Of a stretch of 32,000 nucleotides of DNA, positions 7,015 to 31,240 are shown in pieces. A program made the position numbers and the translations under genes. Source of the DNA: Bacteroidota bacterium (lineage in GTDB: Bacteria > Bacteroidota > Bacteroidia > Chitinophagales > Chitinophagaceae); NCBI GenBank assembly GCA_031384415.1, contig JANNAM010000001.1, positions 30,168-62,167 of the forward strand, in the 5' to 3' direction. How positions within the stretch are numbered: position 1 is the first letter of the stretch; each line of letters opens with the position of its first letter. The notes under the pieces are model-generated. The model saw only the letters and a list, made by a program, of their open reading frames with translations. It was not told the origin of the DNA and searched no databases.

Positions 7015-7109
7015 AATTAGTAAGTAATGGGGTTGCAATACGGCAGGGGTTTAAAAGGGAAAGGAAAATAAACTTACTAATCCGGGGTAAACATACGGGA
7101 TACGCTGTA

Positions 7110-7877: not shown

Positions 7878-8032
7878 AAAAAATAATCAACAACAGTGTA
7901 AAATAAAAATTGGGGGTTACAGCTACAGAAACGTGAAAATAGCAATTTTATTGAAACCGGAGCCAATTATAACACAATTATGTGGAAAAGTTGAAAACTC
8001 CGGGCTATGGAATGATTAAAAAAATCATGTGT

Positions 8033-9160
8033 TTATAAATTGCCCCTTGCATCCTGTTCTCTTTCCAATGCTTCAAACAATGCTTTAAAATTTCCTTTAC
8101 CAAAACTTTTTGCTCCCTTCCGTTGTATAATTTCAAAAAATAATGTTGGCCTGTCTTCTAATGGCTTAGAAAAAATTTGCAGTAAATAACCTTCTTCATC
8201 CCTGTCAATTAAAATACCCAGTTCCTGCAATGGTTTTAAATCCTCGTCAATTTTACCAACCCTGTCCAGCACATCTTCATAATAGCTGGATGGAATATTT
8301 AAAAAATCAATGCCACGTTTTTGAAGTTCGGTAACCGTCTTAACAATATCGGCAGTGGCAATGGCTACATGTTGCACACCTTCTCCATTATAAAAATCAA
8401 GATACTCTTCCACCTGGCTTTTCTTTTTTCCTTCGGCAGGTTCGTTAATAGGGAATTTTACAAAGCCATTCCCATTGCTCATCACTTTACTCATCAATGC
8501 AGAGTATTCTGTAGAAATATCTTTATCATCAAAAGTGAGAATATTGCGGAATCCCATCACTTCTTCATAAAAATTCACCCAGGGGTTCATCTGGTTCCAG
8601 CCAACATTACCCACGCAATGATCTACATACAATAAACCAGTTTCAGTTGGATTATAATTCGATTTCCACTCCCTGAAGCCTGGCATAAAAATGCCGTTGT
8701 AATTTTTTCTTTCAATAAAAAGATGCACTGTATCGCCATAAGTGTGAATGCCGCTTACAATCACCTCGCCATTTTCATCTTTCAAAGTTTCAGGAGCTTT
8801 ATAACTTTTGCCACCACGTTTGGTGGTTTCTTCATAAGCAGTTGTTGCATCTTCCACTTTTAAAGCAAGAAATTTTACCCCATCGCCATGTTTGTAAATA
8901 TGGTCGGCAATTTCGTTGCCCGGCCTCAGCGGCGTGGTTAACACAAAAGTGAGTTTGTTCTGCCTTATCACATAGCTTACTTTATCTTTCATCCCCGTTT
9001 CGGGGCCGGCATAAGCCAGCGACTGAAAGCCAAAAGCAGTTTTATAAAAATGTGCAGCCTGCTTTGCATTGCCCACATAAAATTCTACATAATCGGTGCC
9101 CTGCAATGGCAGAAAATCTTCAGCAATTATTTTTTTATCTGTTGTTAATTCAGCTAACAT
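8033..9160 (-). CDS. hppD: 4-hydroxyphenylpyruvate dioxygenase
   Basis: Two VOC/glyoxalase-fold halves (DYVEFYVGNAKQAAHFY; VDHCVGNV) are followed by the C-terminal LLQIF.KP..DRPT.FFEIIQR.GA.SFGKGNFKALFEA.EREQ. The start is uncertain: the ATG at 9160 is preferred, the ATG at 9190 is possible, and the track start is 9238. Confidence 0.85.
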   Translation of the reverse strand: MLAELTTDKKIIAEDFLPLQGTDYVEFYVGNAKQAAHFYKTAFGFQSLAYAGPETGMKDKVSYVIRQNKLTFVLTTPLRPGNEIADHIYKHGDGVKFLALKVEDATTAYEETTKRGGKSYKAPETLKDENGEVIVSGIHTYGDTVHLFIERKNYNGIFMPGFREWKSNYNPTETGLLYVDHCVGNVGWNQMNPWVNFYEEVMGFRNILTFDDKDISTEYSALMSKVMSNGNGFVKFPINEPAEGKKKSQVEEYLDFYNGEGVQHVAIATADIVKTVTELQKRGIDFLNIPSSYYEDVLDRVGKIDEDLKPLQELGILIDRDEEGYLLQIFSKPLEDRPTLFFEIIQRKGAKSFGKGNFKALFEALEREQDARGNL

Positions 9161-9410: not shown

Positions 9411-9926
9411 ATGGAAAAGTGGAAAGATTATTTAACCATTGCAGGCCAGTCGGTTGCTGTTTACTTTTTTATTATTGCCGCCATCCGCATTTTTGGCAAA
9501 AAAGAACTTTCGCAGCTTTCGGTTGTTGACTTGGTGTTTATTTTATTAATCAGCAACAGTGTTCAAAATGCCATGGTGGGCAAAGACGATACATTGCCCG
9601 GCGGCCTTGTGGCTGCATTAAGCCTTTTTATTGCCAACTATATTTTAAAATATTTGTTCCGTGTAATTCCCTCCATCAGCAAAGCAGTGCAGGGCGAAAA
9701 AATAATTCTTGTGCATGATGGCGAAGTTTTTGAAAAAGGAATGAAAGAAGCCATGATGAATATGGATGAACTGGAAATGGCAGTGAGGGAACATGGCATT
9801 AACAGCGTCAAAGATGTAAACCTTGCAGTGCTGGAAGTGGATGGCAATATCAGTGTGCTGTCTAAAAACTATTCTCATAAAACTGTAAAAAGAAGAAAGA
9901 AACCCCAGCTATCTCACAACCCATAA
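9411..9926 (+). CDS. DUF421 (YetF-like) membrane protein
   Basis: From the ATG at 9411 the protein reads MEKWKDYL...AVYFFIIAAIRIFGKKELSQLSVVDLVFILLISNSVQNAMVG, the YetF N-terminal pattern. The C-terminus has the NMDELEMAVREHGI..V.DV.LAVLE.DGNISV pattern. The upstream 40 codons of the track ORF look non-coding. Confidence 0.75.
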   Translation: MEKWKDYLTIAGQSVAVYFFIIAAIRIFGKKELSQLSVVDLVFILLISNSVQNAMVGKDDTLPGGLVAALSLFIANYILKYLFRVIPSISKAVQGEKIILVHDGEVFEKGMKEAMMNMDELEMAVREHGINSVKDVNLAVLEVDGNISVLSKNYSHKTVKRRKKPQLSHNP

Positions 9927-9987
9927 AAACAGAAACTTTATTCGCTGTAATTTTTTGGCGTTGTATCTTCGGCTCTTAATTATTAAG

Positions 9988-11115
9988 ATGAAAAAAGTTG
10001 GCATACTTGGCGGCGGACAATTAGGCAGGATGTTACTGCAGGCTGCAGCAAATTACCCGGTGGAAACTTTTGTAATGGAGAATGATGATGACTGCCCCGC
10101 TGCACACCTCTGCCATCATTTTACCAATGGCGATATTAAAAACTTTGACGACGTTTATAATTTTGGCAAAGGCCTCGATGCCCTTACCATCGAAATAGAA
10201 AGTGTGAATGAAGATGCACTGGAAAAATTAGAAACCGAAGGAGTACGCATTTATCCCAAACCATCTGCTTTAAAAATTATTAAGAACAAAATTTTACAAA
10301 AGCAGTTTTATAAAGCCAGTGAAATACCCACCAGCGAATTTGTAATTACGCAAAATGCCGGCGAACTTAACCAGCATTTTAACTTTTTACCGGCAGCCCA
10401 TAAAATTGGTATTGGCGGCTATGATGGCCGTGGTGTTCAGCTTTTAAAAACAAAGGAAGACATAGCAAAAGGATTTGACAGCCCATCGGTACTGGAAAAA
10501 TTAGTTACCATAAAAAAAGAACTTTCGGTAATTGTTGCGGTAAATGATAAAGGAGAAAATGCTTTGTACCCTTCTGTAGATATGGTTTTTGACCAGCGGT
10601 TAAATTTATTAGATTACCAGATAAGCCCGGCAGACATTGCTGAAAAAATTTTATGGAAGGCCGAAGCCATTGCATTGAAAGTGGTGAAAGATTTAAAAAG
10701 CCCCGGCATTTTTGCCATAGAATTATTTATTGACGACAAAGACAATGTGCTGGTAAATGAAACCGCACCAAGGGTACACAACAGCGGCCATCATACCATT
10801 GAAGCAAATTACAGCAGCCAGTTTGATATGTTGTGGCGGATAATGCTGGGCTACCCTCTGGGAAATACCGAACACATTTTACCGGCCGCTATTGTAAATT
10901 TGCTAGGGGCAGATGGCCACAGCGGCGAAGCCCATTATGAAGGGCTGGAAGAAATTTTAAAAATAGAAAATGTATTTGTTAATATTTATGGAAAAAAAGA
11001 AACAAGGCCCGGCAGAAAAATGGGGCATGTAACTATACTTAGTAAAGAAAAGCAGGAACTGATTCACCAGGCTAACAGAATAAAACAACATTTAAAGGTG
11101 ATATCAAAAACTTAA
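9988..11115 (+). CDS. purK: N5-carboxyaminoimidazole ribonucleotide synthase
   Basis: MKKVGILGGGQLGRM start, an ATP-grasp core and NE.APR.HNSGH.T. The ATG at 9988 is preferred over the TTG at 9955. Confidence 0.9.
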   Translation: MKKVGILGGGQLGRMLLQAAANYPVETFVMENDDDCPAAHLCHHFTNGDIKNFDDVYNFGKGLDALTIEIESVNEDALEKLETEGVRIYPKPSALKIIKNKILQKQFYKASEIPTSEFVITQNAGELNQHFNFLPAAHKIGIGGYDGRGVQLLKTKEDIAKGFDSPSVLEKLVTIKKELSVIVAVNDKGENALYPSVDMVFDQRLNLLDYQISPADIAEKILWKAEAIALKVVKDLKSPGIFAIELFIDDKDNVLVNETAPRVHNSGHHTIEANYSSQFDMLWRIMLGYPLGNTEHILPAAIVNLLGADGHSGEAHYEGLEEILKIENVFVNIYGKKETRPGRKMGHVTILSKEKQELIHQANRIKQHLKVISKT

Positions 11116-11164
11116 ACGACTGTTTTTTTGTTTAAAAAGATTCTAATAAAAAAATAAAAATCAG

Positions 11165-12229
11165 GTGAGCGTAATTTCAAAATCAATTGCAGTAATTTTT
11201 ATTTTTACAGTGCTGCTTACATTCGGTTGCCAGTCTGGTAAAAAAGAAGACAGTAAAACACCTGCCGCAAAACCACCAGCACCCGTTTCAAAAGCCGAAG
11301 GATATATTGTAACTCCAAAATTGCTTTCGCAGGGGCTTGAAGTGCCGGGCAGCCTGGCACCTTATGCAGAAACTGAACTGCACCCCGAAGTGAGCGGCAG
11401 GGTAACAGCCATTTATTTTAAAGAAGGCAGCTATGTAAACCAGGGTGCAATGATTTTAAAAATTTATGACGGCGATTTGCAGGCCCAGCTTAAAAAACTG
11501 CAGGTGCAGTTGAAAGTAGCTGAGCAAACTGCAGCAAGATATGAGGCTTTACTAAAAATTGGCGGCGTAAGCCAGCAGGAGTATGATATGCAGGCTTTAT
11601 CGGTTAACACAATTAAAGCCGATATGAATATTGTAAGCACCAGCATTTCAAAAACATCATTGAGGGCACCCTTCAGCGGCAAACTCGGTTTAAGTACGCT
11701 CAGCATTGGCGCTTACATCACGCCTGCCACGGTAGTTGCTACGCTTAGAAAAGTAAGTCAGCTTAAATTATCTTTTACTGTGCCGGAAAAATACGGGCCA
11801 AAAATGAAAATTGGTAACCTGGTTCATTTTTCTGTTGAAAACAATCCAACTGTTTACACCGCAAAAATTACAGCCACCGAAAATAATATAACAGAAGAAA
11901 ACCGCAGCCTGAATGTAAATGGAGTGGTTGTAAAACCCGATGCTCAATTAATTGCCGGCGCTTTTGCCAGAGTGCAAATTCCCTTAGGCGAAAATGATGC
12001 AGCATTAATGATACCAACACAGGCCATAATACCTGAAGCAAGAAATAAAAAGGTAATTGCTGTAAGAAACGGCCTTGCTTCGATGGAAGTGGTAACACTG
12101 GGCACAAGGGATTCGGCGATGGTGGAAATAACTAGCGGGCTAAAAGCAGGCGATACGGTTTTAATAAGCGGCCTGTTAACTACAAAACCCGGCAGCAAAG
12201 TGCAGATAAATAAAATTTCTAAAAATTAA
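11165..12229 (+). CDS. RND efflux periplasmic adaptor (membrane fusion protein), lipoprotein
   Basis: GTG start. Lipobox LLTFGC. Typical HlyD/AcrA pattern: E.SGRVT.I.F.EG..V..G..L..I, a coiled-coil segment, and LRAPFSG..G. Confidence 0.85.
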   Translation: MSVISKSIAVIFIFTVLLTFGCQSGKKEDSKTPAAKPPAPVSKAEGYIVTPKLLSQGLEVPGSLAPYAETELHPEVSGRVTAIYFKEGSYVNQGAMILKIYDGDLQAQLKKLQVQLKVAEQTAARYEALLKIGGVSQQEYDMQALSVNTIKADMNIVSTSISKTSLRAPFSGKLGLSTLSIGAYITPATVVATLRKVSQLKLSFTVPEKYGPKMKIGNLVHFSVENNPTVYTAKITATENNITEENRSLNVNGVVVKPDAQLIAGAFARVQIPLGENDAALMIPTQAIIPEARNKKVIAVRNGLASMEVVTLGTRDSAMVEITSGLKAGDTVLISGLLTTKPGSKVQINKISKN

Positions 12230-12242
12230 ATAAGCAAGCGCT

Positions 12243-15200
12243 GTGAACATTTCAGAATTAAGTTTGCGAAGGCCGGTACTGGCAATGGTGCTTAACTTAA
12301 TTATTATTTTATTCGGATTAATCGGGTATAAATTTCTTGGTGTAAGAGATTATCCCGCTATTGATCCGCCCAATATAAATGTACGGGCATCTTATCCCGG
12401 TGCCAATGCCGATATTATCGAATCGCAAATAACCGAGCCTCTCGAAAAAGCCATTAACGGTATTGCAGGTATAAAAAATATTACTTCCAGCAGCAGCCAG
12501 GGCAGCAGCAATGTTAATGTAGAGTTTGAATTGGATGTTGACCTGGAAGCCGCAGCCAATGATGTAAGGGATAAAGTATCGCAGGCCAGCCGTTCGCTGC
12601 CCGCCGACCTGGATGGGCTGCCAGTTGTTTCAAAAGCCGATGCCAGCAGCGACCCAATTTTTTTTATGATCATCCAAAGCTCCACAAAAAACCAACTGGA
12701 GTTAACAGAGTTTGTTCAAAACAATATTGTTGAAAGGATTCAGACAATACCCGGAGTAAGCGGCGTAAATATCTGGGGCGAAAAAAAATACGCCATGCGT
12801 ATCTGGCTAAATCCTTCAAAACTGGTTGCTTTTTCTATTACACCCGGCGATGTGCAGCAGGCGCTGGCAAAAGAAAATATTGAATTGCCATCTGGCAAAA
12901 TATCGGGCAATGCAACTGAACTTTCCATCCGTACATTTGGCCGCCTTAATACCGAAGAGCAGTTTCAGGAACTGATTGTAAAAAACATTAACGGCACCGA
13001 TATAAAACTGAAAGATGTTGCCGAAGTGCTGCTGGGCCCCGAAAACGAAGAATCTGTTTTAAAAGAAAGCGGTGTACCCATGCTGGCCATTGTAGTTGTT
13101 CCACAGCCCGGCACCAACAATATTGCCATTGCCAATGAATTGTTCAAACGATTTGATGCAATACTTAAAGACATGCCCGCCGACATAAGGCTTGAGATAA
13201 GTTACGATCAAACCAAATTCATACGCAAATCAATTTCTGAAGTAAAAGAAACACTGCTTATTTCTTTCATCCTTGTTGTGTTAATCATCTATCTTTTTTT
13301 CAGAGACTGGATAATTGCCATCCGGCCATTGATAGATATCCCCGTTTCATTAATTGGTGCCTTCTTTATTATGTACCTCTGTGGTTTTACCATTAACCTG
13401 CTTACGCTGCTTGCCATTGTGCTGGCCACGGGCCTTGTAGTAGATGACGGAATTGTGGTAACAGAAAACATTTTTAAAAAAATGGAAAAGGGAATGAACA
13501 AGTGGCAGGCTGCCAAAGAAGGTTCCAAAGAAATTTATTTTGCCGTTATTGCCACTTCCATCACACTGGCTGTGGTGTTTTTGCCCATTATTTTTTTAGA
13601 AGGTTTTGTGGGCAGGTTGTTTCGTGAGTTTGGAATTGTGGTTGCCGGCGCTGTGCTCATTTCTGCTTTTGTATCATTAACATTAACCCCGGTACTCAAT
13701 GTTTTTTTATCAAGAAAAAATGTACACAAGCATACCTGGTTTTACAATGTAACCGAACCTTTTTTCAGGGGAATGGAAAACGGATATAAAAAATCGCTGG
13801 CCGGATTTATGAAAGTAAGATGGATGGCATTACCAATTATTGCAGGCTGTTTTTTAATCATCTGGTTCATTGGCAAAAACCTGCAGTCGGAACTGGCACC
13901 AATGGAAGACCGCAGCGGCTTCCGCCTTACTGTAACTGCACCCGAAGGCACTGCTTATGATGCCATGGATAAATACATGGATAAACTGGTAACACTGGTA
14001 ATGGACTCTGTACCCGAAAAAAAATATGTGGTAAACATGACAGCCCCCGGTTTTGGCGGAGGAGGCAGTGCCAACAGCGGATCTGTGAGGGTGGTATTAA
14101 GTGAGCCAAAAGAAAGAAACAGGAGCCAGCAGGATATTGTAAACCTTATCACCAAAAATTTATCCCGCTATAACGAAGGAAGGGCTTTCCCCATTCAGGA
14201 ACAAACCATTGCTGTAAACCGCCGTGGCGGCCAGCCTGTTCAGTTCGTAATTCAGAACAATGATTTTGATAAACTTTCAAAAGCCCTTCCCCGGTTTTTA
14301 GAAGAAGCATCTAAAAGCACCATATTACAAGGCATTGATGCCGACCTTAAATTTAATAAACCCGAACTGCGGTTGAATATTGACCGGTTGAAAGCAAGCC
14401 AGTTGGGTGTAAGTGTCCAGGATATTTCAGAAACCATGCAACTGGCTTTTAGTAACAGAAGGCTTGGATATTTTATTAAAGACGGAAAACAATACCAGGT
14501 TATTGGCCAGGTTGACAGGGATAACCGTGACGACCCCGAAGATTTAAAAGCCATCTATGTAAGAACAAACAAAGGAAACATCATCAGCTTAGACAATGTG
14601 GTTTCCATCACAGAAGATGCAACGCCGCCAACTATCTTCCATTTTAACAGGTATAAATCTGCAACCATATCTGCAGGATTAGCACCTGGCAAAACTGTAG
14701 GCGATGGCATTAAAGAAATGGAAAGAATTAAAACAAAAGTACTGGATGAAAGTTTTAGTACTGCATTAAGCGGCTCATCCAGAGATTTTGCAGAAAGCAG
14801 CAGCAACACAAGTTTTGCTTTTATGCTGGCGCTGGTGCTTATCTTTTTAATTTTGGCGGCCCAGTTCGAAAGTTTTATTGACCCCTTCATCATCATGTTT
14901 ACCGTTCCGCTTGCCATTGCAGGCGCTGTGTTATCGCTTTGGCTTTTTGGGCAAACCATCAATATATTTTCGCAAATTGGAATGATTATGCTGATTGGGC
15001 TGGTAACCAAAAATGGAATTTTAATTGTGGAGTTTGCCAACCAAAATCAGTTGAAAGGCATGAAAAAAACACAGGCTGTTATTTATGCAGCTTCGCAAAG
15101 GCTGCGGCCTATTTTGATGACGAGCCTTGCCATGAGTTTGGGAGCATTGCCGCTGGCATTGTCATTAGGCGATGCTGCCACCAGCCGTATTCCACTCGGT

Positions 15201-22064: not shown

Positions 22065-24533
22065 ATGAAACAAAAACTACTACTTATCGCAATAACTGTA
22101 TTGCTCACAGCCTTTGGGGCAACTGCCCAAAACCGGGCTAAAATTACCGGGCAGGTAAAAAACAATGACGGCAATGGGGTGAAGGCTGCCACCATCATGT
22201 TAAATAAATCATCTGATTCTTCACTGGTTAAAACTGCTGTGTCGGATGCAAGAGGCAACTATGAAATGGAAGGCATTAAAGCAGGCAGCTATTTTATTAC
22301 TACCAGTTTTGTAGGAATAAAAAAAAGCTTTTCGCCCGTTTTTACTGTTAAAGACGGAGAAACATTTTCTGTGGCAGCCATTACCTTAAAACCTGCCGAA
22401 AAAAACCTGCAGGCTGTTAGCGTAACAAGCACTTACAAAAAACCAATGATAGAAGTGAAGGCTGATAAAACCATCCTGAATGTGGAAAGCAGCATTAACT
22501 CTACAGGGAGCAATGCCTTTGAACTGCTGCAAAAAGCACCGGGTGTTGTAACTGATAAAGATGATAACATTACATTGAAAGGTAAAAATGGTGTAAGGGT
22601 TTATATTGATGGCCGGCCTACTCAAATGAACAATGCTGATTTGGCTGCTTATCTTAAATCAATCAACTCGGTAGATATTGAATCAATTGAAATGATTGAC
22701 AACCCTTCTGCCAAATATGACGCAAGCGGCAATGCCGGCATCATCAATATCAAATTAAAAAAGAATAAAAAATACGGTACCAATGGTTCCTTTTCATCGG
22801 GGCTTAATGTGGGTGAAAGGCCAAAAACAAATATGGGTTTAAGTTTAAACAACCGCAATAAAAGACTTAACCTGTTTAGCAATTACAGCAATGGATGGAA
22901 TGACAACATCATGCATTTTAACTCGAACAGGAAACAGGGAGACAGTAATTATAGCCAGGTAAGCAAAATGCTGAACAAAGGCTGGAACCATAATATGAAA
23001 GCAGGTGCCGACCTGACTATAAACAAAGAACAAACCATTGGTTTTATTGCCACTTTAAATCTAAACAACTCAACAGGCCGTACTGAAAGCCGCACACCAA
23101 TCAGTTCATTAAGTACGGGCAAGGTTGGCAGCATATTATACGCCAACAACACAATCCCAACTAATACAAAAAATTTCAACTTCAATTTCAACTATCGTTT
23201 TGCTGATACTGCCGGGCATGAGTTTAACCTTGATGCAGACTTTGGTTCTTACAGAAGCCGTAAGAACAGTTTTCAGCCTAATAATTATTATGGTTTCTAC
23301 CCCGAAATATTTTTATACGATAGAATTTACCGCAACCAAACCCCCACTGATATAAAAATACGCACTGGCAAGTTTGATTACGAAACGCCATTTAAAAAAG
23401 GCAAACTGGGCGTTGGGGCAAAAGTAAGCGGTGTGCAAACTGATAATACATTTAATTTTTACAATGTTATCAGCGGATATGATATGATTGATTTAAACAG
23501 GAGCAATACTTTTACTTACAAAGAAAATATAAATGCATTGTATGTAAACTATAACCGTCCATTGGGTAAGAAGTTTACAGTACAGGCAGGTGTACGCATG
23601 GAAAACACCATAAGCGATGGCCAGTTAAAAAGGGCTGATGGCCTGCCCCAAGCCGATGACAGGGTGAAAAGAAATTACACAAATTATTTTCCCAGCGCTG
23701 CCATTACTTTTAATCAAAGTATGAACCATATTTATAACCTTACTTACAGCCGCAGGATTGACAGGCCCAATTACCAGGACTTAAACCCTTTTGAAAATAA
23801 AATAGACGAACTTAGTTATCAAAAAGGAAATGCTTTTCTTCGTCCGCAATATACTAATGCAGTATCGCTAACACATACTTACAAATACAGGTACAATATG
23901 TCAGTAAGCTATAGCCATATCAGCGATTATAAAGCACAAATAATTGATACTACCGAAAAAAGTAAATCGTATATCACACAAAAGAATTTGGCCAGCCAGG
24001 ATATATTCAATGTCAACCTGTCGCTGCCTTTTCAAATTACAAAGTGGTGGACGCTGTATGCAAACATCAATGCATACAACAGTAAGTACAAAGCAGATTT
24101 TGGGAATGGCAAAAAAATAAACATCAATGTTACTTCAGGTAACTTGTATATGTCAAACTCTTTTACGATTGGTGGTGGATACACAGGCGAAATTTCTGGT
24201 TTTGTAACCGCTCCTTCTGTTTGGGCAGGAACTTTCAAAAGCAGGGCATTGGGCACATTAGACCTTGGCCTGCAAAAATCATTGTTTAAAGGAAAGGGCA
24301 ATTTTAAAGTAAGTTATACCGACTTATTAAAAACCTTTAAATTCCGTGGCATCAGTGATTATGGTGGATCTTACATAGATGTTAGTGGCCACTGGGAAGC
24401 ACAGCAATATCGTATGAACTTTACATGGCGCTTTGGTAACAGCCAGGTGAAAGCAGCACGCCAGCGCCAAACAGCCAGCGAAGAAGAAAATAAAAGAACG
24501 CAGCAAACTGGTGGCGGCATAGGCGGTAATTAA
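22065..24533 (+). CDS. Outer-membrane beta-barrel receptor with CarboxypepD_reg-like and TonB-dependent plug domains
   Basis: Signal peptide MKQKLLLIAITVLLTAFGATAQ. GQVKNNDGNGVKAATIML...DARGNYEM is the carboxypeptidase-regulatory fold. The plug pattern is LLQKAPGV......I.L.G..GV.V.IDGRP...IESIE.I.NPSAKYDASGNAGIINI. A long beta-barrel ends in NFTWRFGN. Confidence 0.8.
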   Translation: MKQKLLLIAITVLLTAFGATAQNRAKITGQVKNNDGNGVKAATIMLNKSSDSSLVKTAVSDARGNYEMEGIKAGSYFITTSFVGIKKSFSPVFTVKDGETFSVAAITLKPAEKNLQAVSVTSTYKKPMIEVKADKTILNVESSINSTGSNAFELLQKAPGVVTDKDDNITLKGKNGVRVYIDGRPTQMNNADLAAYLKSINSVDIESIEMIDNPSAKYDASGNAGIINIKLKKNKKYGTNGSFSSGLNVGERPKTNMGLSLNNRNKRLNLFSNYSNGWNDNIMHFNSNRKQGDSNYSQVSKMLNKGWNHNMKAGADLTINKEQTIGFIATLNLNNSTGRTESRTPISSLSTGKVGSILYANNTIPTNTKNFNFNFNYRFADTAGHEFNLDADFGSYRSRKNSFQPNNYYGFYPEIFLYDRIYRNQTPTDIKIRTGKFDYETPFKKGKLGVGAKVSGVQTDNTFNFYNVISGYDMIDLNRSNTFTYKENINALYVNYNRPLGKKFTVQAGVRMENTISDGQLKRADGLPQADDRVKRNYTNYFPSAAITFNQSMNHIYNLTYSRRIDRPNYQDLNPFENKIDELSYQKGNAFLRPQYTNAVSLTHTYKYRYNMSVSYSHISDYKAQIIDTTEKSKSYITQKNLASQDIFNVNLSLPFQITKWWTLYANINAYNSKYKADFGNGKKININVTSGNLYMSNSFTIGGGYTGEISGFVTAPSVWAGTFKSRALGTLDLGLQKSLFKGKGNFKVSYTDLLKTFKFRGISDYGGSYIDVSGHWEAQQYRMNFTWRFGNSQVKAARQRQTASEEENKRTQQTGGGIGGN

Positions 24534-24552
24534 CGTTAGTTTTTAAACAAAT

Positions 24553-24582
24553 AAAACCACTTCATAACTGAAGTGGTTTTTT
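24553..24582. terminator. Bidirectional rho-independent terminator
   Basis: Perfect 11-bp stem AAAACCACTTC / GAAGTGGTTTT with a 6-nt loop. It is flanked by an A-rich tract on the left and T-rich tract on the right, between convergent stops at 24533 (+) and 24604 (-). Confidence 0.85.
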
Positions 24583-24603
24583 ATTGGATCATTTACAAAA
24601 TAT

Positions 24604-25389
24604 TTACAACTTGCTGTAAATACTTCTGTACCTGAAAACTTCTTTAGAATAATCTTTAGAAAAAGTATAAGTATCAACATCAAGGTTTTTTGTCAATGCC
24701 TTGTGTACATTTCCTTCTCCGCAGTTGTAGGCCGCAGTGATAGCTCGGTGCCAGGTATCGGTGGGTAGTTTTTGCTCCCAGCCCTTGCTTTTTAAAAAAG
24801 TTTTTTTACCATCCAAAACCTTCACAGCCATCATTGCAGTTTCATGTGGGTCAACCCATTTACCAGAATTTACAAAAGCTGCAAAAGAATCTATATCAAT
24901 TTGCCAAAACCCAAACCCATGATATATTTTTTTGGCATCGCCGGCCCGCTTTCCATAATCGCCTTTCATCAAAGGGCAAATTTCTGCAAATGAATTGCCA
25001 TGGTTTACGAAACGGGTAAATAAAAAACCTGTTTCCCTTGCACACATGCCGGCAAGCCAGTCTTCGGTGTAAATGCTGCCGGTAATTGCCTGCTTCATAA
25101 TATTGCCCAAATTATCTTTAATCCATTTCATCATTTTTTGATCGCTGTTTAGTTGCAATGGCTTTGGTTCACTGTCTGGGTTAAAGCCAAGTGCTGCAGC
25201 CTTGCCCAATGTTATACTGCCTGCCAGCCCTGTCGCCTGAATGCCATAAAATTTTTGAAACGCTAAGGTGGCTTCTTTTGTTTTGGGGCCAAAAGTGCCG
25301 TTGGGTTCAGCAGTAAAAAAACCCTGGACTTTAAGAAACTGCTGCCATTTTTTTACCAATGGTCCGCTGTCGTTTAGTTGAATTGCCAT
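24604..25389 (-). CDS. Leaderless peptidoglycan-binding (PG_binding_1) + goose-type lysozyme/GH23 muramidase, endolysin-like architecture
   Basis: The N-terminal GPLVKKWQQFLKVQGFF...DGxFG-like NGTFGPKTKEATLAFQKFYGI fits PG_binding_1. The C-terminal CARETG (putative catalytic E119), KGDYG...YHGFGFWQIDIDSF and ITAAYNCGEGNV...DVDTYT..KDYSKEVFRYRSIY parallel SRESHAG, GDRGNGFGLMQVD and ISAYNAGAGNV...DIGTT.DDYANDVVARAQYY of goose egg-white lysozyme as recalled. There is no hydrophobic N-terminus. An in-frame stop lies 18 codons upstream with no intervening start codon. Confidence 0.75.
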   Translation of the reverse strand: MAIQLNDSGPLVKKWQQFLKVQGFFTAEPNGTFGPKTKEATLAFQKFYGIQATGLAGSITLGKAAALGFNPDSEPKPLQLNSDQKMMKWIKDNLGNIMKQAITGSIYTEDWLAGMCARETGFLFTRFVNHGNSFAEICPLMKGDYGKRAGDAKKIYHGFGFWQIDIDSFAAFVNSGKWVDPHETAMMAVKVLDGKKTFLKSKGWEQKLPTDTWHRAITAAYNCGEGNVHKALTKNLDVDTYTFSKDYSKEVFRYRSIYSKL

Positions 25390-25484
25390 AAAAGTTAGAG
25401 TTTGATTGTTAAAATTATTGTTTAAAAAAAATGTATCCCATTATTTAGCCGAAAAGAAAGTTGTAGCTATTTTGTTATACACAT

Positions 25485-27161
25485 TTATTTTACAAATGTT
25501 GTCGGATTGATTTCAGCGATCTGTTTAATTTCCTCAGCAGATAAATGCGCCTGTATATCTGTCCAGAATTTTTTATCGGTTCCTTTTTGCCGCACCACAT
25601 AAAAATCGGTGCCGTATAAAATACGTTCCCGTAAATGTGGCACCTGCAGTGAAGATTTTAAGAGTGCAATTATTTTTTCATCATAAATAATAAAACTTAT
25701 GTCGGCATAAACGTTTGGATAATCGGGATTCATTATTATACTCCGTATGATGCTGTACCATGTTTCCTGTTTCCAGGATGCAGCAAGTGCAGGATTTTGA
25801 AATTGCTGAAAATAAAGCGGGCTTTGAGCAAATTTATTATCATAATTGTTGCGGTCGGCAGCAATATATTTTTCCCACTCATCTTCGCCGCCAAAATGGC
25901 CAAAGCATAATTTAAGTTTCCGCAAATCGTTAAGCAATTCAGACTCTTCTGCAGTAGCAGCTTTTATAAAGCCGTAAAGCTTGTATAATTTATCAGTAAG
26001 CGGTTCCCCTTCTTTTAAATCAAACAAAACTATTTTTAAAAACACAGGGTCGAGCAGGCAGAGATAATTAAGCGGATGCGTAAAATTTACCGTGAAATCA
26101 ATGTTTTTAAATTCTTTCAGTTTCATTTTATCTTCTTTGCCTTCCCATTTTTCTTTAAAAACCGGATGAAAATCCCATTCAGCCTTTTTCATGCCCCTGT
26201 AAAAAATTACTCCCCTTATGCAATGAGTTAATACAGGTATTTCATTTTTGCAGGCATATAAAAACAGTTCCAGCAAATGTTTATCAAAAGGATAATAACC
26301 CAGTGCCGGGTAAATTTTTATTCCGCTAAACTCGTGTTTCTCTAAGCAATCAATTACCGTTTGATAATATCCGGGCTGTGCTGCAAAACGGCGGGGGTCG
26401 GCAAATACAAAGGGTTTCAGCGTAAGGCCATGATCGGGATGCTGCTTTAATTTAATCAGTTCATCTAACTGTTGCAGGTAATTAAAGCTGGGTTTTCCGG
26501 CTTTTAAATAATCCATATCCATTGGCAGCACAACAAAATTAGCGCCTGCCGGATAGCTTTTTGTTAACACAGTATAAATGTAACGCTGGCTCCTGTTTTT
26601 ACTGAGCAATGCAATATTGTAATACCGTTTTAATAATTGAATGTTGGCACTGCCCATGATAATTTTTAAAAAAGAAAAAGCTGCAAACAGCAAAAGCTTC
26701 ACCACATTGCGTACGGCTTTAAACAAAATGATGCCCACCAAAAGTATAATTGCTTTCCACCACCAGTTTATTCCAATAAGAATTTTTACATACTCGTTGC
26801 TAACACTCCAGTTTAAAAATTTAATTATGTATTCGTTTGTAAAAAAACGCCTCAAAAAACTAAGTGTAATAAATGTACAAACAGCAATTACAGATAACCT
26901 GATTAACCATGCCAAAAATTTTGATATTGCGTTATGTTCTGTCAGCCTTCCCCACCAAAAATAAAATCTCTTGAGTGGTGTTTTAAAAAACCACCAGGCA
27001 TTTTTTAGCCAGCCATCGTTGGCGCTTCGCACAATTGCAATAAGCCATTTTATATTTAACAGATAATAAAATGGAAAAGGCATCAGTGTTTTACCAAGGT
27101 ATGGCGGCACATGATCGCCGGTGAAGATGTGAGTGTGACAGTTGGTGATTTTGGTGGACAT
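25485..27161 (-). CDS. Amidohydrolase-fold (amidohydrolase_2-like TIM-barrel metallohydrolase) protein interrupted by a ~145-aa hydrophobic, Trp-rich membrane insertion
   Basis: The HxH motif is at the extreme N-terminus (NCHTHIF, H9/H11). Later come VLTHCIRG, CFGHFGG and ILYGTDFYVV, in the order expected for the metal and catalytic ligands. Residues ~27-170 contain 3-4 hydrophobic helices and 11 Trp. The gene starts 12 nt after the upstream gene's stop. Confidence 0.6.
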   Translation of the reverse strand: MSTKITNCHTHIFTGDHVPPYLGKTLMPFPFYYLLNIKWLIAIVRSANDGWLKNAWWFFKTPLKRFYFWWGRLTEHNAISKFLAWLIRLSVIAVCTFITLSFLRRFFTNEYIIKFLNWSVSNEYVKILIGINWWWKAIILLVGIILFKAVRNVVKLLLFAAFSFLKIIMGSANIQLLKRYYNIALLSKNRSQRYIYTVLTKSYPAGANFVVLPMDMDYLKAGKPSFNYLQQLDELIKLKQHPDHGLTLKPFVFADPRRFAAQPGYYQTVIDCLEKHEFSGIKIYPALGYYPFDKHLLELFLYACKNEIPVLTHCIRGVIFYRGMKKAEWDFHPVFKEKWEGKEDKMKLKEFKNIDFTVNFTHPLNYLCLLDPVFLKIVLFDLKEGEPLTDKLYKLYGFIKAATAEESELLNDLRKLKLCFGHFGGEDEWEKYIAADRNNYDNKFAQSPLYFQQFQNPALAASWKQETWYSIIRSIIMNPDYPNVYADISFIIYDEKIIALLKSSLQVPHLRERILYGTDFYVVRQKGTDKKFWTDIQAHLSAEEIKQIAEINPTTFVK

Positions 27162-27173
27162 GGGCTGTTTTAC

Positions 27174-29108
27174 TTATTCTGATTTATCTTTTTTAGCGAA
27201 CAAGTTTGTTTTAAACCCAAATTGAAATTGTGGGTAATTATATTTTGCATCTCCTATTTGTGCAAAATGTGCATACCTGATATAAATTTTATTATTTGGA
27301 TTAGAGAAAGGATAATAATAAATAGTAGCCTGTGGATTAAATATGCAGATTGTTTCTCTATTCTTATACGGCGAGTTTTTTGGAGATTTTTGCCATAAAT
27401 ACTTTATAGATGCTTCCAGCCCGAAATTATCAAGACGGTTAATTGTATATTCTATTTCAGGGAAATAGTTTACCGTAACCAAATCCTTTTTATATATACT
27501 ATCTGCATTTGTTAAACTAATTTCTGCACCGGCATTTAAATACAACTGCTGGTTATTACCAATACCTAATCTAAAAATATTTGTCTTTAAGCCAGCTTGT
27601 AAGTAAGCAATTTGATTAAGATATAACCTGTTTATTACACTATCAACTTTATCCCGACTATTATTTATACTGTCCAATTGGCCAAATTTACTATCATACT
27701 TTGAAAGTCTGAAGTAAGCTTTTACAAAATTATGAATCATAAAATCCTTATTCCTCCAAATATTATTTGAATTAGTTAAAAATATTCCAGTTACCTGTGT
27801 CTGTATAATTCCATTTGCTTTTCTGCCAACCAGGGCAAGTAAATCTGAATATACATTTACATCTAATAGTTCGCTGATTGTAGATCCAGTATAAAGAGTG
27901 TCAATTGGATTTCGGGGTGTTAATATAGCCGTTTCATCACCCGGATAACTAAACTTTCCATTATAGACATAGTTAAATACCTGCCTAATCTCAATGATAT
28001 CATTATAGTCAATATCATCCACTCTTAAAACATCTCCTTTTCTTCTGTCTAATCTGTAAAGAGTAACAGGGGCCCATTTATTTCTAAATATTCTGCCATC
28101 AACTAAAGTAACTTTAATTCCATTTTTTCTTATTGCACCATTAGCCATAACAATCTCTACAGAAGCTATTTTAACTTCTGTTGAATCAATTCCGGGCCTT
28201 TTTGTACAATTCTTAATATTGACCAAAGAATCAACAAGCTTAAAATATCCAATAGATTTTTTAGTAGCTTTTTCATTAAATAAATCTTCAAGTTTATTAT
28301 TGATGATAGTCATTTGCTTTTCCGATTCTGTTGGCTCTTTTGGTTGTTTCTTTGCCATTTCAGCAATGTAATTGACATATTCATCTTCAGGAAGTGGGTC
28401 AAATTTTAAAGAGTCCAAACTTATATTACCCATTAATTTAGAAACCATTTCTTTTGTAAACCGAACAAATGTCTCTCTTTTGATATCTCCAAACACAATT
28501 TTAGTTATACAAGTATCAATTCCGGCAATAGTGTCTTTGCAAATTTTCATTTCTGTTTTTCCAGAATATTTTTTAAGTGTTAAATTAAAAAGATTAGTAG
28601 CATCATAACTAAAGTTATCTTTAAAAGAAGGGGTATCTATAACTTTTTTATCTTTTTTACTTTCAGCAATATACTTTTCATTTAATGCAGTTAATGAATC
28701 AATGATTTTTTTATCAGCTTCGTTTTTTTCATCTTCAGCAATTCTTTGACCAGCAGCTTTTTCTTCAACTGCAATAAAATCATTGGCACTTTCAAAAAGT
28801 ATATCAATATCATCATTTAAGCGATTGTCGGTTTTTGCTGTGGAATCAAATTTCGAAAGCAGGGTTTTAAAAACAGGTCGAAATATTGCCGGTGATTTAT
28901 AACCCATACCGATTATAGAATCGCAACAATTATTTGCATGTAATGAGGCATTTGCTTTACAAACAATCATTTTGTAACCAGTCATTTTATTTTTCTCAAA
29001 TTTCAATTCATAAACCGTTGAATCGAAAATAAACTTATGGGCATACTTTTGTGCAGTTGCAGAAAATTGTACCATCATAACAATAAGAAGTAAAAGTAAA
29101 TTACGCAT
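27174..29108 (-). CDS. Secreted protein of unknown family; C-terminal third looks like an outer-membrane beta-barrel
   Basis: The ATG at 29108 gives MRNLLLLLIVMMVQFSATAQ (the track start at 29129 is a TTG). The N-terminal half has two similar Cys-pair modules and Lys/Glu-rich linkers. The C-terminal ~230 aa have alternating hydrophobic beta-strand periodicity ending in YPQFQFGFKTNLF plus a short charged tail. The gene is markedly AT-rich. I recognise no family. Confidence 0.45.
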   Translation of the reverse strand: MRNLLLLLIVMMVQFSATAQKYAHKFIFDSTVYELKFEKNKMTGYKMIVCKANASLHANNCCDSIIGMGYKSPAIFRPVFKTLLSKFDSTAKTDNRLNDDIDILFESANDFIAVEEKAAGQRIAEDEKNEADKKIIDSLTALNEKYIAESKKDKKVIDTPSFKDNFSYDATNLFNLTLKKYSGKTEMKICKDTIAGIDTCITKIVFGDIKRETFVRFTKEMVSKLMGNISLDSLKFDPLPEDEYVNYIAEMAKKQPKEPTESEKQMTIINNKLEDLFNEKATKKSIGYFKLVDSLVNIKNCTKRPGIDSTEVKIASVEIVMANGAIRKNGIKVTLVDGRIFRNKWAPVTLYRLDRRKGDVLRVDDIDYNDIIEIRQVFNYVYNGKFSYPGDETAILTPRNPIDTLYTGSTISELLDVNVYSDLLALVGRKANGIIQTQVTGIFLTNSNNIWRNKDFMIHNFVKAYFRLSKYDSKFGQLDSINNSRDKVDSVINRLYLNQIAYLQAGLKTNIFRLGIGNNQQLYLNAGAEISLTNADSIYKKDLVTVNYFPEIEYTINRLDNFGLEASIKYLWQKSPKNSPYKNRETICIFNPQATIYYYPFSNPNNKIYIRYAHFAQIGDAKYNYPQFQFGFKTNLFAKKDKSE

Positions 29109-29157
29109 GATTATAGGTTTTGCTTGCAAAGATTTATATTAACATTAAAAAGTTCTA

Positions 29158-29194
29158 CCGTGTTTTACCCATTTACACACCCGTGTTTACACCC
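29158..29194. repeat. Direct repeat CCGTGTTT(T)AC(A)CCC x2, starts 22-23 nt apart, in the upstream region of the 27174-29108 gene
   Basis: CCGTGTTTTACCC (29158-29170) and CCCGTGTTTACACCC (29180-29194) read directly. They lie 50-86 nt upstream of the ATG at 29108. Confidence 0.5.
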
Positions 29195-29413
29195 GCCACT
29201 TTGCAGTTGCCTCATGTTCGAAAGAATATTTAGAAAAGGATATTATAAAAAGCCGGTTAGCTTAGCCGAGGGTGAGGGATTGAGCTAATTTAGTATGCAA
29301 TTCTGATAAAAAGAAGAGTTTGATAAAAAATATTTTTTATTATTTCTGCTGTAAGCAAAAAAAGTTAGGCTTAATGAAAATATTTAAAGCAGCATGTTAA
29401 AAGAAAAACTGCT

Positions 29414-31240
29414 TTAATTGGCAACTACAAAATCGGGTTTGCGGATAAAAGTGCTGTTGTATTTAAATAATAATTTGGTGGAAAATTCTACCCTGTAATT
29501 TTTCATTCCGGGAATTACTCTTGGGAAAAAATATCCCTTTAATTCCATCGTGCCAAACAACAGGTTTTCGTTGCGGCTGCGTATGCCGCTTCCAACTGCA
29601 GTAAAGACATCACTTTTGGCAAATGTTTTATTAATGGGAGTAACCATGCATACATCAGTAAAAACAAATGGGGCTAAGCGGAATCCAAGAATTTTATTGG
29701 TATTAAAAAAAACAGATTCTAATTTTAAGGTACTTCTAAAGTCGGCTGCTGTAGTTGCATTGTTAAAATATGGCAGCCCAAAATCGCTTTGCAAAAATAA
29801 GGGCGCACTTAAAACAGGATTAATAAGTTTTGTAAACCCTGCATTAATAAAATTTCTGTTAAGCCAGTTACCTTTCATTTTTTTTAACCTGGTAAAATGA
29901 GTGAGGTTGGCAAGCACATTTGCATCGGCAAATTTACCCGACTCATAATAACCACCCAGGCTGAGAAAATAGCTGCTGTAAATTCCCTTCTTAATAAAAT
30001 GCTCACGCCTGAAATCGAGCCCATAGTAAGGCCTGTGTTTGCCCTGCTGGTTAGTCCATCCGCCGGTAAAAGAAAGACTGTAGCCTTCCGGAACATCTTC
30101 GTTGCGGCCAAAACCATAAATAAAATTGGTCCGGTAAAATTCCTGTTTAAAAATATTTACAGATGCCAGTACACCGGTGTTGTCAGCATAATTATAATCG
30201 TATTGCAAAGCAGCTTTGGCAGGTATTTTATTAAACCTTCTGCTGTAAACCCTGAGGGCAATAAATTTACGCAGCCGGGTTTCCTTGTTGGTATATAAAT
30301 ATTTACGGCTGCCAAAATTGTAACCTGCCCATGCATCAGCATTAAAATATTCGTACCTGAAATCAGTTTTGTAAACTGAATCACCGGCGTAATAATTATT
30401 AAACGTTTTATTAAATGAAAAATTTACTGCACCAGTCCAGGGAATGTAAGCGCTAACCAGAGGTTTATCAAAACCAGTATAAAAAACAGATTCCTGCCTT
30501 CGGCCATTATTAAAGGCAGGCCCAAAATTTTTAAACCCAATGGTAAAATCAGCAAAACTTCCGGCAACATTACGGTTTACCATTTCGCCGCCATAGCCTG
30601 TTGATGGGCCCCGGTCCTTATCATAAAACCCATTGAGTGCAATACGGGTAGCCGATCCGTTAAAATTTTCTTCTTTCAGCACCATCCTTCCGCTTTTTGT
30701 ATTGCTTATTGTAACACTGCCGCCCAGTGAGAACACGTCTTTTGTAATTACAATAATATCCACAGAGTCTGCCCCCGAAAAAATGTCATCGGCTATAATC
30801 CTTGCATCCTGCAAATAAGGCAACTGGCGCAAATGGCGTTCATTGTCGGCAATCAAATAAGGAAATAAACGGTCGCCTTTGGCAAAAAATAAATTGTGGC
30901 GGATAACTTTTTCACGGGTGTTGTGGTGAAGTGTGTTGGCAACCCTGACACCAAAATTTCTTTTTATTAAAGTAGTATCATTGATGTTTCTTTCAAAACC
31001 CAGCGAAACAAATTCGATATTACGGATAATTTTCTTTTTAAACCTCAGGTAGGGGTTTTGTAACTGAATAGGTTCGTCAACCGGAGGATCGGTAGAAATA
31101 CTGCGGCCAAGCCTGCCCAGCAGCCCTTTCTTTTTTGCAAGAAAAAAAGTATCATTCTTTTCGACAGGCTGCTGTGCCACTATTTGCGGAGAAGCAAATA
31201 ACAAAACAAAAAAAATTGGCAAAGGGTAGAATTTTCCCAT
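29414..31240 (-). CDS. Omp85-superfamily (BamA/TamA-like) outer-membrane protein with a single POTRA-like domain
   Basis: Signal peptide MGKFYPLPIFFVLLFASPQIVAQ. A POTRA-like segment runs IIRNIEFVSLG...VIRHNLFFAKGDRLFPYLIADNERHLRQLPYLQDARI...SVDIIVITKDVFSL. A long Tyr/Gly/Asn-rich beta-barrel follows, with VGSGIRSRNENLLFG near the C-terminus. Family assignment is by eye only. Confidence 0.5.
   Translation of the reverse strand: MGKFYPLPIFFVLLFASPQIVAQQPVEKNDTFFLAKKKGLLGRLGRSISTDPPVDEPIQLQNPYLRFKKKIIRNIEFVSLGFERNINDTTLIKRNFGVRVANTLHHNTREKVIRHNLFFAKGDRLFPYLIADNERHLRQLPYLQDARIIADDIFSGADSVDIIVITKDVFSLGGSVTISNTKSGRMVLKEENFNGSATRIALNGFYDKDRGPSTGYGGEMVNRNVAGSFADFTIGFKNFGPAFNNGRRQESVFYTGFDKPLVSAYIPWTGAVNFSFNKTFNNYYAGDSVYKTDFRYEYFNADAWAGYNFGSRKYLYTNKETRLRKFIALRVYSRRFNKIPAKAALQYDYNYADNTGVLASVNIFKQEFYRTNFIYGFGRNEDVPEGYSLSFTGGWTNQQGKHRPYYGLDFRREHFIKKGIYSSYFLSLGGYYESGKFADANVLANLTHFTRLKKMKGNWLNRNFINAGFTKLINPVLSAPLFLQSDFGLPYFNNATTAADFRSTLKLESVFFNTNKILGFRLAPFVFTDVCMVTPINKTFAKSDVFTAVGSGIRSRNENLLFGTMELKGYFFPRVIPGMKNYRVEFSTKLLFKYNSTFIRKPDFVVAN

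Follow-up and report, generated by a model that had tools for sequence, protein, structure and literature searches.

Three genes with predicted places in three envelope layers

What function could unite three adjacent genes whose predicted products belong to the outer membrane, the inner membrane and the murein layer? This question is raised by three neighbouring open reading frames (ORFs) on the minus strand, labelled g1, g2 and g3, in a 32,000-nt chromosomal stretch of a soil Bacteroidota bacterium (GCA_031384415.1, contig JANNAM010000001.1, positions 30,168–62,167 of the forward strand), referred to below as the window. They are predicted to encode an outer-membrane barrel protein (g1, 27174–29108), a membrane-inserted amidohydrolase (g2, 25485–27161) and a leaderless peptidoglycan (PG) hydrolase (g3, 24604–25389). 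A first-pass annotation of the DNA had placed the genes at these coordinates, with junctions of 12 nt (g1 stop to g2 start) and 95 nt (g2 stop to g3 start), and had assigned the products to the outer membrane, the inner membrane and the murein; the coordinates and junctions proved exact, and the locations hold up as predictions from domains and topology. We propose that the trio is a modular, phage-lysis-like envelope-breaching cassette, probably for abortive-infection defence or programmed lysis, a reading that the comparisons below make quite possible, if slightly short of probable.

Variants of one architecture at a shared site

The neighbourhoods of homologues of g1, g2 or g3 were fetched for comparison (loci with L-numbers). 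The gene order in the window is ftsY, a gene for a 608-aa protein, g1, g2 and g3 (PG_binding_1 plus GH23), followed by a convergent gene resembling those of TonB-dependent receptors (TBDR-like) and miaB. In L082 a g1-like gene (66%) is followed by a gene for a 306-aa protein, g2 (78%), the TBDR-like gene (75%) and miaB (92%), and there is no g3. This 306-aa product lacks a leader, shows Pesticin/T4-lysozyme (GH24-like) matches besides a weak one to PG_binding_1, and is 44% identical to a 222-aa protein of L099, which itself scores above the Pesticin threshold. In L098 the order is ftsY (89%), a g1-like gene (41%), a gene for an 875-aa protein, a gene for a leaderless muramidase combining PG_binding_1 with GH25 (E 2e-45), and then the TBDR-like gene (50%). 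At least six helices of the 875-aa protein are hydrophobic, and it carries the GGxxRxG, GGSVG and DGG motifs of patatins. None of the alternative lysozymes has a signal peptide.

As judged from predicted domains, this one chromosomal site holds three versions of one architecture, in which a barrel of the g1 type is combined with a hydrolase embedded in the membrane and a PG-binding muramidase without a leader. The muramidases at the site come from three unrelated catalytic families (GH23, GH24-like and GH25). This interchange of muramidase and membrane-hydrolase families suggests that the activity matters more than the specific protein, and argues for wall cleavage from a cytoplasmic start, combined with a membrane-located hydrolytic step, as the likely conserved activity.

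Related combinations were found away from this site. The non-syntenic locus L099 carries a g1-like gene, a gene for a transmembrane protein, an EEP phosphoesterase gene, two small conserved genes and a gene for a pesticin-like lysozyme. In L130 a g1-like gene is followed by a homologue of the transmembrane patatin, and in L097 a PI-PLC gene precedes a g1-like gene. Adjacency of g1 and g2 outside the window was seen in L082 (with the 306-aa gene intervening), in L087 (g1-like gene, then g2) and in L003 (barrel half, then g2). Several distant g2 homologues (about 37–40% identity) adjoin other leaderless hydrolases on the same strand: a leaderless Amidase_2 gene lies 56 nt upstream of g2 in L050, preceded by a transmembrane protein of the '346-aa' family; an Amidase_2+SH3 gene lies 44 nt downstream of g2 in L022; and LysM-CHAP genes lie 9–11 nt downstream of g2 in two Flavobacterium genomes (L070 and L071). 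Across 1.37 Mb of sequence anchored on g2, these hydrolase families have seven homologues, six of which adjoin g2; the count is biased, since the query families were picked from among the neighbours, yet such a clustering in position is striking.

A different explanation, possible though on the unlikely side, is that the genes have no joint function, and that the site between ftsY and the TonB-type outer-membrane protein (OMP) gene is a variable integration hot spot for unrelated accessory genes. In that case g2 would be a solitary gene of defence islands, g3 an endolysin that is either stray or domesticated, and g1 an ordinary OMP. The variation in site content between relatives fits this explanation, as do the strong AT-richness of g1, which looks recently acquired, the mostly solitary occurrence of the g2 family in highly variable neighbourhoods, the unrelated contexts of g3 homologues, and a separate promoter that may lie in front of g3. 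Chance, however, leaves unexplained why the same three functional classes, with non-homologous members, are found at the site, why L099 pairs a g1-like gene with a leaderless lysozyme in a non-syntenic setting, why genes for leaderless Amidase_2 or CHAP hydrolases lie right next to distant g2 genes, with gaps of 2–56 nt, and why an upstream repeat element is shared.

Some unannotated families also recur around g1-, g2- and g3-like genes, namely a transmembrane family of about 350–420 aa, a soluble protein of 117/118 aa and a secreted protein of 399 aa (L090 5261–7950; L099 7915–11555; L050 6236–7297; L084 2111–3364; L088 2301–3413). The L090 and L099 members are 54–60% identical, and these families may supply more exchangeable parts to cassettes of this kind.

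The outer-membrane barrel protein g1

g1 (minus strand) encodes 644 aa from the ATG at 29108, or 651 aa from an alternative TTG at 29129. The signal peptide (MRNLLLLLIVMMVQFSATA-QK) and the beta-barrel-like C-terminus reported by the first-pass annotation are both supported. After the signal peptide comes a hypervariable N-terminal part that includes a long coiled coil; a mixed, conserved middle domain (residues ~280–400) leads on to the barrel (~400–635). Its AlphaFold (AF2) model has a mean pLDDT (the model's per-residue confidence score) of 80, with most of the barrel region above 85, and Foldseek matched the barrel to FapF, NanC, OpcA, OmpT/Pla and porins with probabilities of 0.99–1.0 and modest TM-scores. 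A beta-signal ending in an aromatic residue was sought at the C-terminus; found there was a conserved FQFGFKTNLF followed by a charged tail of 7–9 residues. Searches of PHROG, PADLOC, NCBIfam and Pfam gave no match to g1. When 1.84 billion representative proteins were searched with a profile, a g1 family of 451 representative clusters emerged, in which the shared core is the C-terminal ~390 aa, and the N-terminal third is unalignable even between close relatives.

The gene is indeed AT-rich, as first described, with 29.8% GC against 39% across the window. The GC content of g1 plus its leader (27174–29413) is about 30%, and that of g2 is 36.7%. In L082 and L098 the g1-like genes have the GC content of their flanks, and the g1-g2 pair of L087 comes from a genome of about 33% GC. 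This composition suggests that the g1 of the window, and perhaps also g2, was recently acquired from a donor of lower GC content. No relatives of g1 were found on viral contigs, and none of g1 or g2 on plasmids.

The membrane-inserted amidohydrolase g2

g2 (minus strand) encodes a 558-aa protein assigned to the Amidohydro_2-type metal-dependent TIM-barrel hydrolases by Pfam PF04909, AF2 modelling and Foldseek. The Pfam match (32.4 bits, cut-off 26.4) is limited to residues 480–556, and precomputed PF04909 matches exist for most g2 homologues. The AF2 model (pLDDT 86, pTM 0.83) is a TIM barrel of the ACMSD/LigJ type, and Foldseek returned ACMSD, LigJ and 3ij6 with probability 1.0; uncharacterised amidohydrolases were among the matches. 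In an alignment of 27 sequences, H9 and H11 (an HxH motif after strand 1), H313, H362, H422, D487 and D519 are invariant. A sequence search of the PDB gave no match to g2, nor did PADLOC, PHROGs or NCBIfam, and g2 has no close relative among characterised enzymes. The family comprises more than 1000 proteins of 550–620 aa, almost all from Bacteroidota.

Between strand 1 and the remaining barrel lies a helical insert of about 170 residues (~30–200) with poorly conserved sequence. Hydropathy of g2 and nine homologues, together with flank charges, points to a membrane hairpin at residues ~78–170 (26652–26930, minus strand), with hydrophobic segments at ~82–106 and 130–150, plus 153–171; the first two are strongly hydrophobic in every homologue examined. 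The first-pass annotation had combined amidohydrolase motifs with '3–4 hydrophobic helices'; the motifs stand, and the helix count is approximately right, there being two strongly hydrophobic conserved helices plus amphipathic ones. Since strand 1 packs with the rest of the barrel, the insert should cross the membrane an even number of times. The flanks of the hairpin are rich in K/R (7 K/R and 6 K/R with 0 D/E), which by the positive-inside rule would place the enzyme in the cytoplasm. The insert is thus predicted to be an N-in/C-in hairpin with the catalytic domain on the cytoplasmic side.

Compared with known Amidohydro_2 enzymes (ACMSD, LigJ, LigI and uracil-5-carboxylate decarboxylase), g2 shares the TIM-barrel fold, the N-terminal HxH motif and the conserved His/Asp ligands, at an identity of only 12–14%. 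The solved members that were found lack the ~170-residue helical membrane insert after strand 1, and the g2 family, unlike these enzymes, is essentially restricted to Bacteroidota. Soluble g2 relatives of about 350 aa were also found on three IMG/VR viral contigs (L126–L128, ~7842–8921). These keep the HxH and LPMDM..GAGK motifs and lack exactly the membrane hairpin insert.

The leaderless muramidase g3

g3 (minus strand) encodes a leaderless PG hydrolase of 261 aa, with PG_binding_1 at residues 8–61 (E 1.4e-11) and a C-terminal GH23 domain (goose-lysozyme/SLT-like). This domain composition had been noticed at first sight, as had the absence of a signal peptide, and both were confirmed; the protein has no hydrophobic segment. 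An N-terminal extension was likewise rightly ruled out, no start codon being present between the ATG and an in-frame stop 17 codons upstream. The Pfam SLT score (15.5 bits) is below the cut-off of 21.3, so that the GH23 assignment is based on motifs and on the match of the family profile to goose-type lysozyme (3gxk, E 1.2e-7; 1gbs/153l, ~5e-3). Across 28 sequences the motifs R118-E119-T120-G121, GFGFWQID and AAYNCGEGN show little or no variation. Homologues (n = 252) are nearly all 260–262 aa long, with 57–78% identity across many Chitinophagaceae.

Endolysins of the phiKZ gp144 class have the same length (~260 aa), domain order and leaderless state as g3, with a matching PG-binding domain. 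The family profile matched phiKZ gp144 (E 3e-9) in the binding domain only; the catalytic domain of g3 failed to align with gp144 and matched goose-type lysozymes instead. A phage endolysin of this class would be expected to have its gene in a phage genome beside holin and spanin genes and to act late in infection, at its end; g3 is chromosomal and conserved in Chitinophagaceae. Relatives of g3 at 40–50% identity were found on 20 IMG/VR contigs (for one of which the PHROG annotation was uninformative), and no full-length relative was present in 50,697 deposited phage genomes. The invariant motifs and the relatives on viral contigs are consistent with a putative endolysin origin of g3.

That the locus is a decaying, functionless remnant of a prophage lysis cassette or other phage-derived element is highly improbable. 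The endolysin type of g3, which is that of phages of Gram-negative hosts, speaks for such a remnant, as do the IMG/VR relatives of g3 and the soluble ones of g2. Against it, none of the three ORFs is broken and the catalytic residues are invariant, viral contigs contain no relative of g1, and the fixed 261-aa length of g3 at 57–78% identity in many Chitinophagaceae indicates purifying selection in cellular genomes. Moreover, no phage genes besides the g3-type endolysin architecture were found in the window, the first-pass annotation having correctly listed integrase, capsid, tail and small holin-like ORFs as absent. The remnant explanation was rejected on the intact ORFs and the lack of other phage genes.

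Cell-wall turnover is known to involve PG-binding lytic transglycosylases and amidohydrolases, and the locus sits among housekeeping genes; both points would suit a role in housekeeping envelope remodelling or murein recycling. Housekeeping lytic transglycosylases, however, leave the cytoplasm through Sec or as lipoproteins, and neither g3 nor any of its substitutes has a leader. The patchy distribution, the swapping of parts, the AT-rich g1 and the defence-island neighbours are also atypical of core metabolism. We regard this role as hardly credible, and the housekeeping lytic transglycosylase was discarded as a candidate because g3 is leaderless and the parts are patchy and swapped.

Other g3 homologues occur beside VanY, C1 peptidase and patatin genes (L090), alone (L091), or inside operons for an extracellular contractile injection system (eCIS; L093–L095). 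The hidden Markov model of PG_binding_1 built from the g3 family was too specific to detect other binding domains. In the eCIS loci the homologue P0193 (59% identical to g3, at 8001–8786, and occurring on 178 contigs) is encoded between the tape-measure gene and the gene for an 870-aa eCIS_core (toxin) protein, which suggests that the g3 muramidase family may also serve eCIS release or action. No sheath, tube, baseplate or tape-measure genes were found in the window; g3 as an eCIS component was rejected there, the eCIS setting applying to P0193 only.

Leader region and repeat element

Upstream of g1 lies an AT-rich non-coding leader (29130–29413, minus strand), likely the promoter/operator region, with an inverted-repeat hairpin at its 5' end (29384–29417) directly after the stop of the upstream 608-aa gene. 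The first-pass length of 285 nt is borne out, the leader measuring 284 nt from the TTG start and 305 nt from the ATG. No Rfam families were found in the leader. A scan with the sigma-70 consensus, which is inapplicable to Bacteroidota promoters, found sites no more common than in shuffled sequence. At the other end, a bidirectional terminator-like hairpin of the intrinsic type (strand-neutral; AAAACCACTTCA-GTTA-TGAAGTGGTTTT) has a 12-bp stem and a 4-nt loop flanked by an A-run and a T-run; it was rightly recognised before, with an extent of 24553–24580 instead of 24553–24582. It sits between convergent genes and closes both the cassette and the OMP gene. Both internal junctions, g1/g2 and g2/g3, are free of terminators. 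The tight spacing on one strand, the bounding hairpins and the lack of an internal terminator make it likely that g1, g2 and g3 are co-transcribed as one unit.

The direct repeats described at 29158–29194 are present (minus strand; GGGTGTAAACACGG / GTGTGTAAATGG / GGGTAAAACACGG on the gene strand) and form a candidate transcription-factor site. Within them CCGTGTTT occurs twice, 23 nt apart (29158–29188), and copies 1 and 3, with this 23-nt spacing, lie 60–85 nt 5' of the g1 ATG. Taken by itself the repeat of the window is weak evidence. Paired G[GT]T[GTA][TA]AA (GGTGAAA-like) repeats with a spacing of 22–23 nt, 60–110 nt upstream of the start codon, were found before g1-like genes in four of eleven leaders (window, L087, L098 and L096), with a variant form in L082. 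From shuffled leaders 0.02 such loci are expected, with a background rate of 0.006 per 200 nt in the fetched sequence as a whole. Given its recurrence upstream of g1-like genes, the repeat looks like a conserved operator.

Regulatory genes were seen just upstream of two g1-like genes, namely a LytTR response regulator with a LytS-type kinase in L131 (1464–2989) and a hybrid Y_Y_Y histidine kinase in L099 (1320–4550). Either of these two-component systems may supply the factor binding to the repeat element.

Homologues without partners

Several observations weigh against a joint function. About 80 of 89 g2 loci have no adjacent g1-like gene or PG hydrolase. None of the ten metagenome loci of the g1 family carries g2, and the five most distant also lack a lysozyme; the broad g1 alignment was too diverse for a pattern scan, and the narrower one yielded only these ten loci. 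L087, L096 and L129 have a g1-like gene and no recognisable lysozyme. Only some nine g1 loci are informative, and they are partly dependent on one another, in that the window, L082 and L098 are related by synteny. Genes of similar function can accumulate at a variable hot spot without depending on each other, and the 95-nt gap before g3 could hold a promoter of its own. The patatin call in L098 consists of a sub-threshold Pfam hit plus motifs, and a PDB sequence search with the protein matched nothing. Structurally characterised Amidohydro_2 enzymes, such as those matched by g2 in Foldseek, are mostly decarboxylases, hydratases and lactonases acting on small soluble substrates, which makes an attack of g2 on the membrane speculative. 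No match of g1, g2 or g3 to the PADLOC-DB v2 models was obtained at E values up to 0.1. Finally, L003 (Xanthocytophaga flavus) encodes at 7053–7940 the barrel half of g1 only (295 aa, TTG start, no signal peptide), which may be a remnant or have a mis-assembled start. In the same locus a patatin gene lies about 900 nt downstream of g2.

A tblastn search of g1 and g3 against 80 g2-anchored genome loci (g2 identity 36–43%) found no g3 and one g1 (L003). This was at first read as 'no module', a reading that was revised once non-homologous PG hydrolases had turned up in the same positions. Clustering of g2 neighbours likewise found no universally conserved partner, and neighbourhoods are highly variable. 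The co-occurrence of g2 and g3 that the first-pass annotation wished to see checked failed to appear, there being no g3 homologue in 88 other g2 loci. Its idea of a self-contained three-gene system stands in part: the parts swapped at the same site support a functional unit around a leaderless muramidase, and a fixed trio is contradicted by the lack of g3 at the other g2 loci and by the g2 family occurring mostly without g1 or a PG hydrolase. To judge from these comparisons, the system is a loose modular cassette and not a fixed set of three genes.

Defence context

With the PADLOC models, defence genes were the commonest recurring neighbours of g2 homologues. An OLD/AriA-like nuclease gene lies near g2 in L084, and the gene run of L087 continues into a type I restriction-modification (RM) system. 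The roles listed at the outset, which ranged from cargo release and murein recycling to altruistic lysis or defence, are not narrowed by the sequence as such; the Septu, Lamassu-like, OLD and RM genes beside g2 tilt the balance towards conflict or defence.

Abortive-infection membrane effectors (the patatin-like CapV of CBASS, and the transmembrane effectors of CBASS, Pycsar and Thoeris) share with the cassette a lipase or membrane effector in a defence-island setting, and the sister cassettes place a patatin-type enzyme in the position of g2. Unlike these systems, the cassette has no cyclase, sensor or signalling gene, and the association of a muramidase with an outer-membrane barrel is not found in them.

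Among the neighbours of g2 homologues, Septu PtuA/PtuB genes adjoin g2 in 8 of 80 loci (L005, L018, L022, L030, L033, L047, L049 and L061), and in L030 and L049 the start of PtuA is only 3–6 nt past the g2 stop. Some Septu operons may therefore include a membrane amidohydrolase as a putative third gene. A conserved trio of genes, encoding a caspase-like protein, a protein of about 400–500 aa and an LmuA-like metallo-beta-lactamase protein (PADLOC LmuA, E 1e-86), flanks g2 homologues on either side in Aquimarina and Cognataquiflexum (L046, L053, L056, L068, L077 at 4218–7936, and L073 at 9812–13220). In L089 a related 399-aa protein is encoded directly upstream of g2.

A proposed mechanism and its relation to known lysis systems

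In the proposed cassette, g3 would be a cytoplasmic, endolysin-derived muramidase that could not reach the murein alone, g2 a metal-dependent hydrolase that its two-helix hairpin anchors to the inner membrane on the cytoplasmic side, and g1 an outer-membrane barrel with a large, fast-evolving periplasmic or surface part. A trigger would induce the operon, probably via the repeat operator upstream of g1. g2 would then compromise the inner membrane or a lipid-linked envelope precursor, a role that the multi-transmembrane patatin would take in the sister cassettes, after which the muramidase could reach and cut the PG. The g1 barrel might deal with the outer membrane as a spanin analogue or conduit, or it might act as a sensor. 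The outcome would be a local or complete breach of the envelope, that is, programmed lysis. We infer what g2 acts on, what g1 does, in which order the steps follow and what purpose they serve.

The position of g2 beside anti-phage systems, the hypervariable N-terminus of g1 and the swapping of cassettes at a hot spot favour a role in conflict, and the most likely use is a defence of the abortive-infection type, release of cell contents being the alternative. In a bolder version, which we think rather unlikely, the cassettes would form an undescribed family of Bacteroidota conflict systems, in which the g1 barrel senses phage attack or envelope damage and licenses the amidohydrolase or patatin to admit the muramidase; holin and spanin would have their substitutes in the membrane hydrolase and the barrel, respectively, with the enzymatic parts exchanged at a fixed hot spot.

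The logic of the cassette may be likened to that of holin-endolysin-spanin lysis and of type 10 secretion (PMC10847048, PMC9527704), the latter exemplified by ChiWXYZ of Serratia and by Tc-toxin release in Yersinia entomophaga (PMC10847048). Common to all, if the predictions for the cassette hold, is one component per envelope layer, among them a cytoplasmic, leaderless, endolysin-like muramidase of interchangeable family, whose dependence on a partner would extend to the cassette. As in type 10 secretion, the genes are chromosomal and lie outside a prophage. The phage lysis cassette differs in both membrane parts. A small transmembrane ORF was looked for in 24500–29500 and none was found, the g2 hairpin supplying all membrane segments there; in place of a small holin there is a 558-aa enzyme with a two-helix hairpin, or a multi-transmembrane patatin (L098, L130). 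Nor is there an i-/o-spanin or lipoprotein, the outer-membrane part being a barrel protein of about 650 aa. No cargo gene is evident, and homology is limited to the muramidase. No published description of such a cassette was found in the literature searched, the lipocones paper covering different systems.

The genes might instead form an export or weapon system, similar to type 10 secretion or to the release of colicins via a lysis protein and an outer-membrane phospholipase, in which the PG hydrolase would be the cargo (a bacteriolytic enzyme or bacteriocin), and the membrane hydrolase and the g1 barrel would form an exit independent of Sec. Colicin and pesticin release, by a lysis protein plus OMPLA, shares with the cassette a leaderless toxin, an outer-membrane barrel and phospholipid hydrolysis, with pesticin-family lysozymes present in L082 and L099; Pesticin is a family of muramidase bacteriocins. 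The g1 barrel is as similar to secretion channels (FapF) as to porins, lipases accompany g1-like genes (patatin, PI-PLC and EEP), and a g3 homologue lies inside an eCIS locus, which encodes a delivery machine. The cassette has, however, no immunity gene, no small lipoprotein lysis gene, no receptor-binding or translocation domain and no secretion-system marker, and g1 is not homologous to OMPLA by sequence. Furthermore, a protein made of PG_binding_1 and a GH domain alone cannot cross the outer membrane of a Gram-negative target, and the defence-island context of g2 would be left unexplained. An export or weapon system is a distinctly unlikely explanation.

Defence and lysis systems of Bacteroidota are poorly known. 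If the lysis or opening function of the cassette is real, it would represent a holin-free and spanin-free delivery of a cytoplasmic muramidase to the wall, in which an enzyme-based gate in the inner membrane and a barrel in the outer membrane join lysis and type-10-like mechanisms, and it would probably constitute a new abortive-infection family in Bacteroidota. Even otherwise, the locus offers a first functional handle on two unannotated families, the g1 barrel (451 clusters) and the membrane-inserted Amidohydro_2 proteins (more than 1000), and the non-homologous replacement at one site provides a small set of directly testable constructs.

Neighbouring genes in the window

The window is a chromosomal stretch of a Chitinophagaceae-like bacterium, to judge from named homologues, carrying genes for FBPase, aspartokinase, HPPD, PurK, an RND efflux pump, BshC, MiaB and FtsY, and these homologues include ones from Ferruginibacter, Panacibacter, Ginsengibacter and Chitinophagaceae. 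The convergent TBDR-like gene (22065–24533, plus strand) encodes an 822-aa OMP with CarboxypepD_reg, Plug and OMP_b-brl_3 domains. From its conserved position it is judged to be a backbone gene that marks the right border of the variable site and lies outside the cassette.

On the other side, the 608-aa secreted protein (29414–31240, minus strand) has a weak POTRA/BamA-like match (TIGR03303, E 1e-5), and its gene has a terminator-like hairpin of its own. This gene is found between ftsY and g1 in the window only, being absent from L098 and L082, and its membership of the cassette is doubtful. As ftsY runs directly into the g1-like gene in L098, gene order identifies it as a putative further insertion at the same hot spot.

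Two other genes of the window are unrelated to the cassette: one for a 661-aa protein with the C-terminal sorting domain of the type IX secretion system (T9SS; 5053–7038, minus strand), and one for a YkuD-type L,D-transpeptidase (7110–7877, minus strand). Their presence indicates that the organism has a T9SS and L,D-crosslinking activity.

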